From NCBI RefSeq assembly GCF_056712565.1, contig NZ_CM160072.1: DNA of 64,000 bases; one strand, 5' to 3'. The number at the start of each line of letters is the position of its first letter. Within the stretch, counting starts at the first letter, position 1. Below are positions 12,969 to 13,685 of the stretch, piece after piece. The position numbers were made by a program, and so were the translations under genes. The notes beneath the pieces are model-generated. The model saw only the letters and a program-made list of their open reading frames with translations. It ran no database searches and was not told the origin of the DNA.

Positions 12969-13685
12969 TCAGTTTGCCAGCGCCGCCTTCTGCGTCGCTA
13001 CAATGGATTCGATTCCCCCTCGGGCCAGCGCCAACAAGGTGAGTAACTCTTCGTGGGTGAACGGTTCGCCTTCTGCCGTCCCCTGCACTTCAATGATACG
13101 CCCGTCTTCGGTCATCACTACGTTCATGTCGGTCTCTGCGGCAGAGTCTTCAACATATTCCAGATCGCAAACCGCTTCGCCGTTCACAATCCCGACAGAG
13201 ACCGCGGCTACCATCCCTTTCATTGGATTAGTTTTCAGCTTGCCGTTTTCCACCAGCTTCTGTAGCGCATCTGCCAGCGCCACGCAGGCACCCGTAATCG
13301 AAGCGGTACGCGTGCCACCATCAGCCTGAAGCACGTCGCAGTCCAGCGTAATGGTGAACTCACCCAGTGCTTTCAAATCTACTGCCGCGCGAAGAGCACG
13401 GGCGATCAGACGCTGGATTTCCATTGTGCGTCCACCCTGCTTACCTTTCGCCGCTTCACGCGCGTTACGGGTATGGGTAGAACGCGGCAGCATACCGTAC
13501 TCTGCGGTGATCCAGCCCTGGCCCTGACCTTTCAGGAAGCGCGGCACGCCTTCTTCAATAGAGGCGGTACACAACACTTTGGTATCGCCAAATTCGACCA
13601 GCACCGAGCCTTCTGCATGTTTTGTATAGTTACGAGTCAGGGTAACGGGACGCACCTGATTATTGCTACGGCCTGCTGGACGCAT
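12969..13685 (-). CDS. rph: ribonuclease PH (Rph), full length
   Basis: [39 protein letters not shown]..., 238 aa with an intact C-terminus (...ATQKAALAN), i.e. no frameshift of the kind carried by K-12 MG1655 (rph-1). Confidence 0.85.

Follow-up and report, generated by a model that had tools for sequence, protein, structure and literature searches.

The rph gene on the minus strand at 12969..13685 of the 64,000-nucleotide stretch of Escherichia coli DNA analysed here (the window) raises two linked questions: whether it is free of the frameshift known as rph-1, and whether an intact copy is enough to place the source strain outside laboratory K-12. The original prediction held that rph is full length and took this as confirmation of a non-laboratory K-12 background. 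The locus is almost certainly an rph-pyrE operon in its ordinary, ancestral form, from an E. coli outside K-12 that is most closely matched by extraintestinal pathogenic (ExPEC) strains; it encodes the full 238-aa Rph, lacks rph-1 and contains a pyrE gene that is presumably expressed normally, and nothing in the sequence speaks against this reading. The evidence for the allele and the evidence for the background are nevertheless distinct, and the intact state of rph supplies only the former.

The rph reading frame extends from an ATG at 13685 to a TGA at 12971-12969, and its 717 nt comprise 238 codons and the stop codon. The start is the same as that of rph in the RefSeq annotation of the near-identical ExPEC XM (12969-13685). 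The longest mechanical ORF opens with a TTG at 13709, which was rejected as the rph start; the ATG is preferred because of a GGAG 8 nt upstream, the annotated start in ExPEC XM and the match of the protein to position 1 of the family model. The ORF finder also lists plus-strand frames within rph (e.g. 13003-13329), which are mechanical output.

The encoded protein scores 380.8 bits against TIGR01966 (RNasePH, an NCBIfam equivalog with a curated cut-off of 141.5 bits), with residues 2-236 of the protein matching positions 1-235 of the 236 in the profile, and contains the Pfam domains PF01138 (RNase_PH, residues 10-140) and PF03725 (RNase_PH_C, residues 157-222). RNase PH of P. aeruginosa (1r6l/1r6m), an orthologue from another genus, is collinear with Rph over residues 2-237 (residues 3-238 of 239 in 1r6l; E = 3.7e-104), including the C-terminal helix region that is lost in rph-1. 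Given the span of the family model and of the 1r6l alignment, Rph is full length relative to its family, and not only relative to MG1655 or K-12. Its C-terminus reads exactly as it had been quoted in the original prediction. From orthology, we infer that the protein is a phosphorolytic 3'-5' exoribonuclease in this strain.

An alignment with MG1655 rph-pyrE had been proposed as the check on this claim. It was carried out against the reference segment NC_000913.3 3812000-3822000, and the single-base deletion of MG1655 is absent from the window. Within the 1,550-nt rph-pyrE unit, defined as the region from the pyrE stop codon to the base before yicC, a single G is the sole indel between the two sequences. 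It belongs to a run of five G residues at 13015..13019 (minus strand; CCCCC on the plus strand) inside the codons for Arg222-Gly223-Gly224, and both the alignment and a script place the indel at 13019. The site reads CGAGGGGGAATC in the window and CGA-GGGGAATC in the gapped MG1655 sequence (ungapped, CGAGGGGAATC), so that GGGGG in the window stands against GGGG in MG1655.

The consequences for MG1655 Rph are visible in translation. The frame shifts after Gly223 and reads CGA GGG GAA TCG AAT CCA TTG TAG, yielding a product of 228 aa that ends in ...LALARGESNPL*. The MG1655 gene (b3643) bears the annotation 'truncated RNase PH'. Its final 15 codons have been changed or lost, the protein is shortened by 10 residues, and the premature stop precedes the normal one by 29 nt. 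The TAG triplet that serves as this stop is also present in the window, at 12998..13000 on the minus strand, where it is out of frame. The rph-1 allele of MG1655 and W3110 thus occupies the same locus, flanked by pyrE and yicC as in the window, but is distinguished by one deleted G:C pair, the ESNPL* ending and the 228-aa product, in place of which the window has five G residues and 238 aa. Jensen's original description of rph-1, from 1993, reportedly agrees with the deletion and the shortened product seen here. PMC9997739 and PMC5379014, both with reference to Jensen 1993, likewise describe the loss of one base pair close to the 3' end, which makes Rph 10 residues shorter and stops translation well before the pyrE attenuator; this is in keeping with the account of MG1655 given in the original prediction, in which a 3'-end frameshift truncates Rph.

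The position of the rph stop codon bears on the downstream gene, pyrE (12262..12903, minus strand), which is annotated as such and encodes an orotate phosphoribosyltransferase of 213 aa (TIGR00336, 239.9 bits). Its ATG is at 12903, and PyrE has one amino-acid difference (I120V) from that of K-12. The 65-nt intercistronic region (12904..12968, minus strand) shows no difference from MG1655 in the alignment. It contains the pyrE attenuator, an intrinsic terminator at 12936..12963 (minus strand) whose sequence is identical in the window and MG1655. The stem-loop, AAGGCGACT-GATG-AGTCGCCTT, occupies 12963-12942 and is followed by a T-run; the terminator scan reports 9 pairs in the stem and the tail TTTTTTGTCT, and both the minimum free energy and the centroid folds give the same hairpin. 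The stem begins 5 nt past the rph stop, which ends at 12969, and the window therefore has the arrangement of an attenuation operon, with an intrinsic terminator directly after the rph stop and upstream of pyrE. The rph-1 stop triplet (TAG, 13000-12998), by comparison, lies further upstream, and 34 nt separate its end from the stem.

In the established model (Jensen 1993, with previous studies by that laboratory), readthrough from rph into pyrE is UTP-sensitive and requires translation of the 3' end of rph to be coupled to transcription. When a ribosome completes rph while following RNA polymerase closely, it masks the hairpin's 5' arm and suppresses termination. In rph-1, release of the ribosome about 30 nt earlier leaves the hairpin free to form, and pyrE expression is lowered. 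The distances between stop codons and terminator fit this coupling model. In the strain from which the window derives, pyrE expression and regulation are expected to be normal, and a strain with this wild-type rph-pyrE operon should be free of the pyrimidine limitation known from MG1655 and W3110. The phenotype of rph-1 is described in PMC9997739 and PMC5379014, and 'polarity', the term used in the original prediction for the effect of rph-1 on pyrE, is acceptable shorthand.

An intact reading frame could still encode a non-functional protein or be differently regulated, through A138V, T216I or a promoter change, although this is very improbable. The K-12 rph+ allele (WP_001247096.1; DH10B, NCM3722 and MC4100, among others) resembles that of the window in its 238 aa, its run of five G residues, its stop codon and its identical attenuator, and differs by two substitutions, A138V and T216I (read from window to K-12), which could favour such a reading. 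Against this, the family score is far over the cut-off, and the attenuator and intergenic region are the same as in K-12. The rph-pyrE unit is also 100% identical in every record among the matches listed, including UTI89, S88, APEC O1, IHE3034, NU14, ATCC 11775 and ExPEC XM, and the ExPEC rph product (WP_001247093.1; UTI89, S88, APEC O1, IHE3034 and ExPEC XM) corresponds to a gene with no difference from the window. Across about 5,424 complete E. coli genomes, the unit is at least 99% identical in 155, and falls between 95 and 99% in the rest except 3. That A138 and T216, in place of the V and I of K-12, alter the activity or stability of RNase PH in the ExPEC lineage is similarly hard to credit; nothing here suggests so, and the allele is common and conserved. 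An ordinary wild-type gene, already known, is what the window contains.

The distribution of the two alleles was assessed in the same genome collection. A 95-nt query representing the 4-G allele in its MG1655 context matched exactly in 167 genomes (of about 5,420), and the 60 matches listed are all K-12 laboratory derivatives, e.g. MG1655, W3110, BW25113, J53 and HMS174. A shorter query of 84 nt, which has a left flank of just 9 nt before the run and is largely independent of haplotype, gave 168 exact matches, and identity was 95-99% in the remaining 5,256 genomes. In the rows sampled from this second group, 85 nt of the record align at 98.8%, as a one-base gap against the 5-G allele should produce. 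With the 4-G allele in 167-168 of about 5,424 genomes, intact rph is the norm (roughly 97%) and its presence in the window is unremarkable. Comparison of the 84-nt and 95-nt queries leaves at most one further genome with the 4-G allele outside the K-12 haplotype, and the near-equality of the two counts (168 and 167) gives no indication that the deletion recurs among natural isolates.

One genome in this search is of separate interest. In NBRC 3301 (NZ_CP048439.1, roughly 4.66 Mb), only positions 32-84 of the 84-nt query for the rph 3' end are matched, which suggests a deletion at that end of the gene. Compensatory rph-pyrE deletions arise during laboratory evolution of rph-1 strains, and the putative deletion in NBRC 3301 is possibly of this type.

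Whether intact rph argues against K-12 is a different matter. A 96-nt query with the K-12 haplotype and five G residues matched exactly in 180 genomes, and the 60 matches listed are all laboratory K-12 or K-12-type O16:H48 strains. Among them are C600, DH5alpha, NEB 5-alpha, DH1, DH10B/NEB10-beta, MC4100 and BW2952, as well as NCM3722, RR1, RV308, AG100, ET12567 and ER strains, and rph is intact in about half of the K-12 laboratory genomes. DH10B and NCM3722 both encode the 238-aa Rph and are the same as MG1655 over the 1,550-nt rph-pyrE unit (0 substitutions) but for the extra G. The literature points in the same direction: rph-1 is placed only in lines derived from W1485, where it makes its first appearance, and is common to EMG2, MG1655 and W3110, but is absent from RR1/HB101 and from WG1, and NCM3722 is described as WG1-like (PMC5379014, PMC9997739). 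Taken together, the rph+ K-12 genomes and these reports mean that an intact rph excludes only the sub-lineage derived from W1485 (MG1655/W3110). As a marker, rph status identifies that sub-lineage and is unfit, on its own, for calling a strain 'not laboratory K-12'; the step from intact rph to a non-laboratory background in the original prediction therefore fails, given the 180 K-12-haplotype genomes in which the gene is intact.

The conclusion that had been drawn from it is correct all the same, on evidence other than rph, namely the substitutions, the identity to ExPEC strains and a 20-kb island. Laboratory K-12 DNA should show about 100% backbone identity to the reference, and the window falls short of this. 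An origin in an rph+ laboratory K-12 of the DH10B, MC4100 or NCM3722 lineages, which would leave intact rph silent on natural origin and which draws on the many K-12 laboratory genomes with intact rph and on the difference of DH10B and NCM3722 from MG1655 by the G alone, has next to no probability, since the rph-pyrE unit of the window carries 38 substitutions in 1,550 nt relative to MG1655 and likewise to DH10B and NCM3722, the region from coaBC to yicC has 105 mismatches to MG1655 in 4,810 columns (97.8% identity), the unit is fully identical to that of UTI89, S88, APEC O1 and ExPEC XM, and the island after yicC is absent from MG1655. It is thus SNP density and gene content that make the non-K-12 call here, and the locus is best read as the wild-type operon in a non-K-12, ExPEC-like background.

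Over its first 50 kb, the window shows 10 single-base differences from ExPEC XM, at 2920, 5495, 20562, 24744, 26459, 27006, 34280, 35547, 47814 and 48352. In view of these 10 differences, the source of the window is a very close relative of ExPEC XM and not that record itself. Its best matches (ExPEC XM, UTI89, S88 and APEC O1) lead one to expect an ST95-like strain of phylogroup B2. The result for rph itself matters little; it amounts to a check that the gene has been correctly annotated, and its useful part is the correction concerning rph as a marker.

The island near the operon has several features of its own. It is an integrative element of ~20.1 kb at 14676-34802, inserted exactly after the yicC stop codon and lying between yicC and dinD, which are adjacent in MG1655. 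At its right end, the final 21 nt of yicC recur in degenerate form (34782-34802, with 2 mismatches to 14655-14675), after which intergenic sequence of the MG1655 type resumes. The island encodes a tyrosine integrase (14864-16132), Rha, AntA/B, BRO-N and Icd-like regulators, a DUF927 protein, an SSB and a ProQ/FinO protein. At least 80% of the region 12001-37000 of the window is covered in only 17 of 5,426 complete E. coli genomes.

Three large overlapping genes on the plus strand of the island (25470-32817) encode proteins of 843, 686 and 918 aa. PADLOC and Pfam gave no match for these or for the island cargo genes. In PHROGs, the large genes have strong matches to phrog_992 ('head protein', E 2e-298), phrog_1145 (unknown function) and phrog_684 ('virion structural protein', E 5e-295), and the gene matching phrog_992 also has weaker matches to transglycosylase and endolysin-type phrogs. 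Judged by these similarities, the three proteins resemble the internal-virion or ejection proteins of podoviruses. The annotation of the island includes no capsid, portal or terminase gene, pointing to a prophage remnant or a satellite-like element.

Finally, a near-identical 24-nt direct repeat, CGTGTACATA(GA/AG)GGTGTACATAAT, is found at 14783-14806 and 34696-34719. The two copies, 19,913 nt apart, sit just within the left and right boundaries of the island, and each contains two GTGTACATA motifs; they may represent binding sites of the integrase arm type or for a recombination directionality factor.
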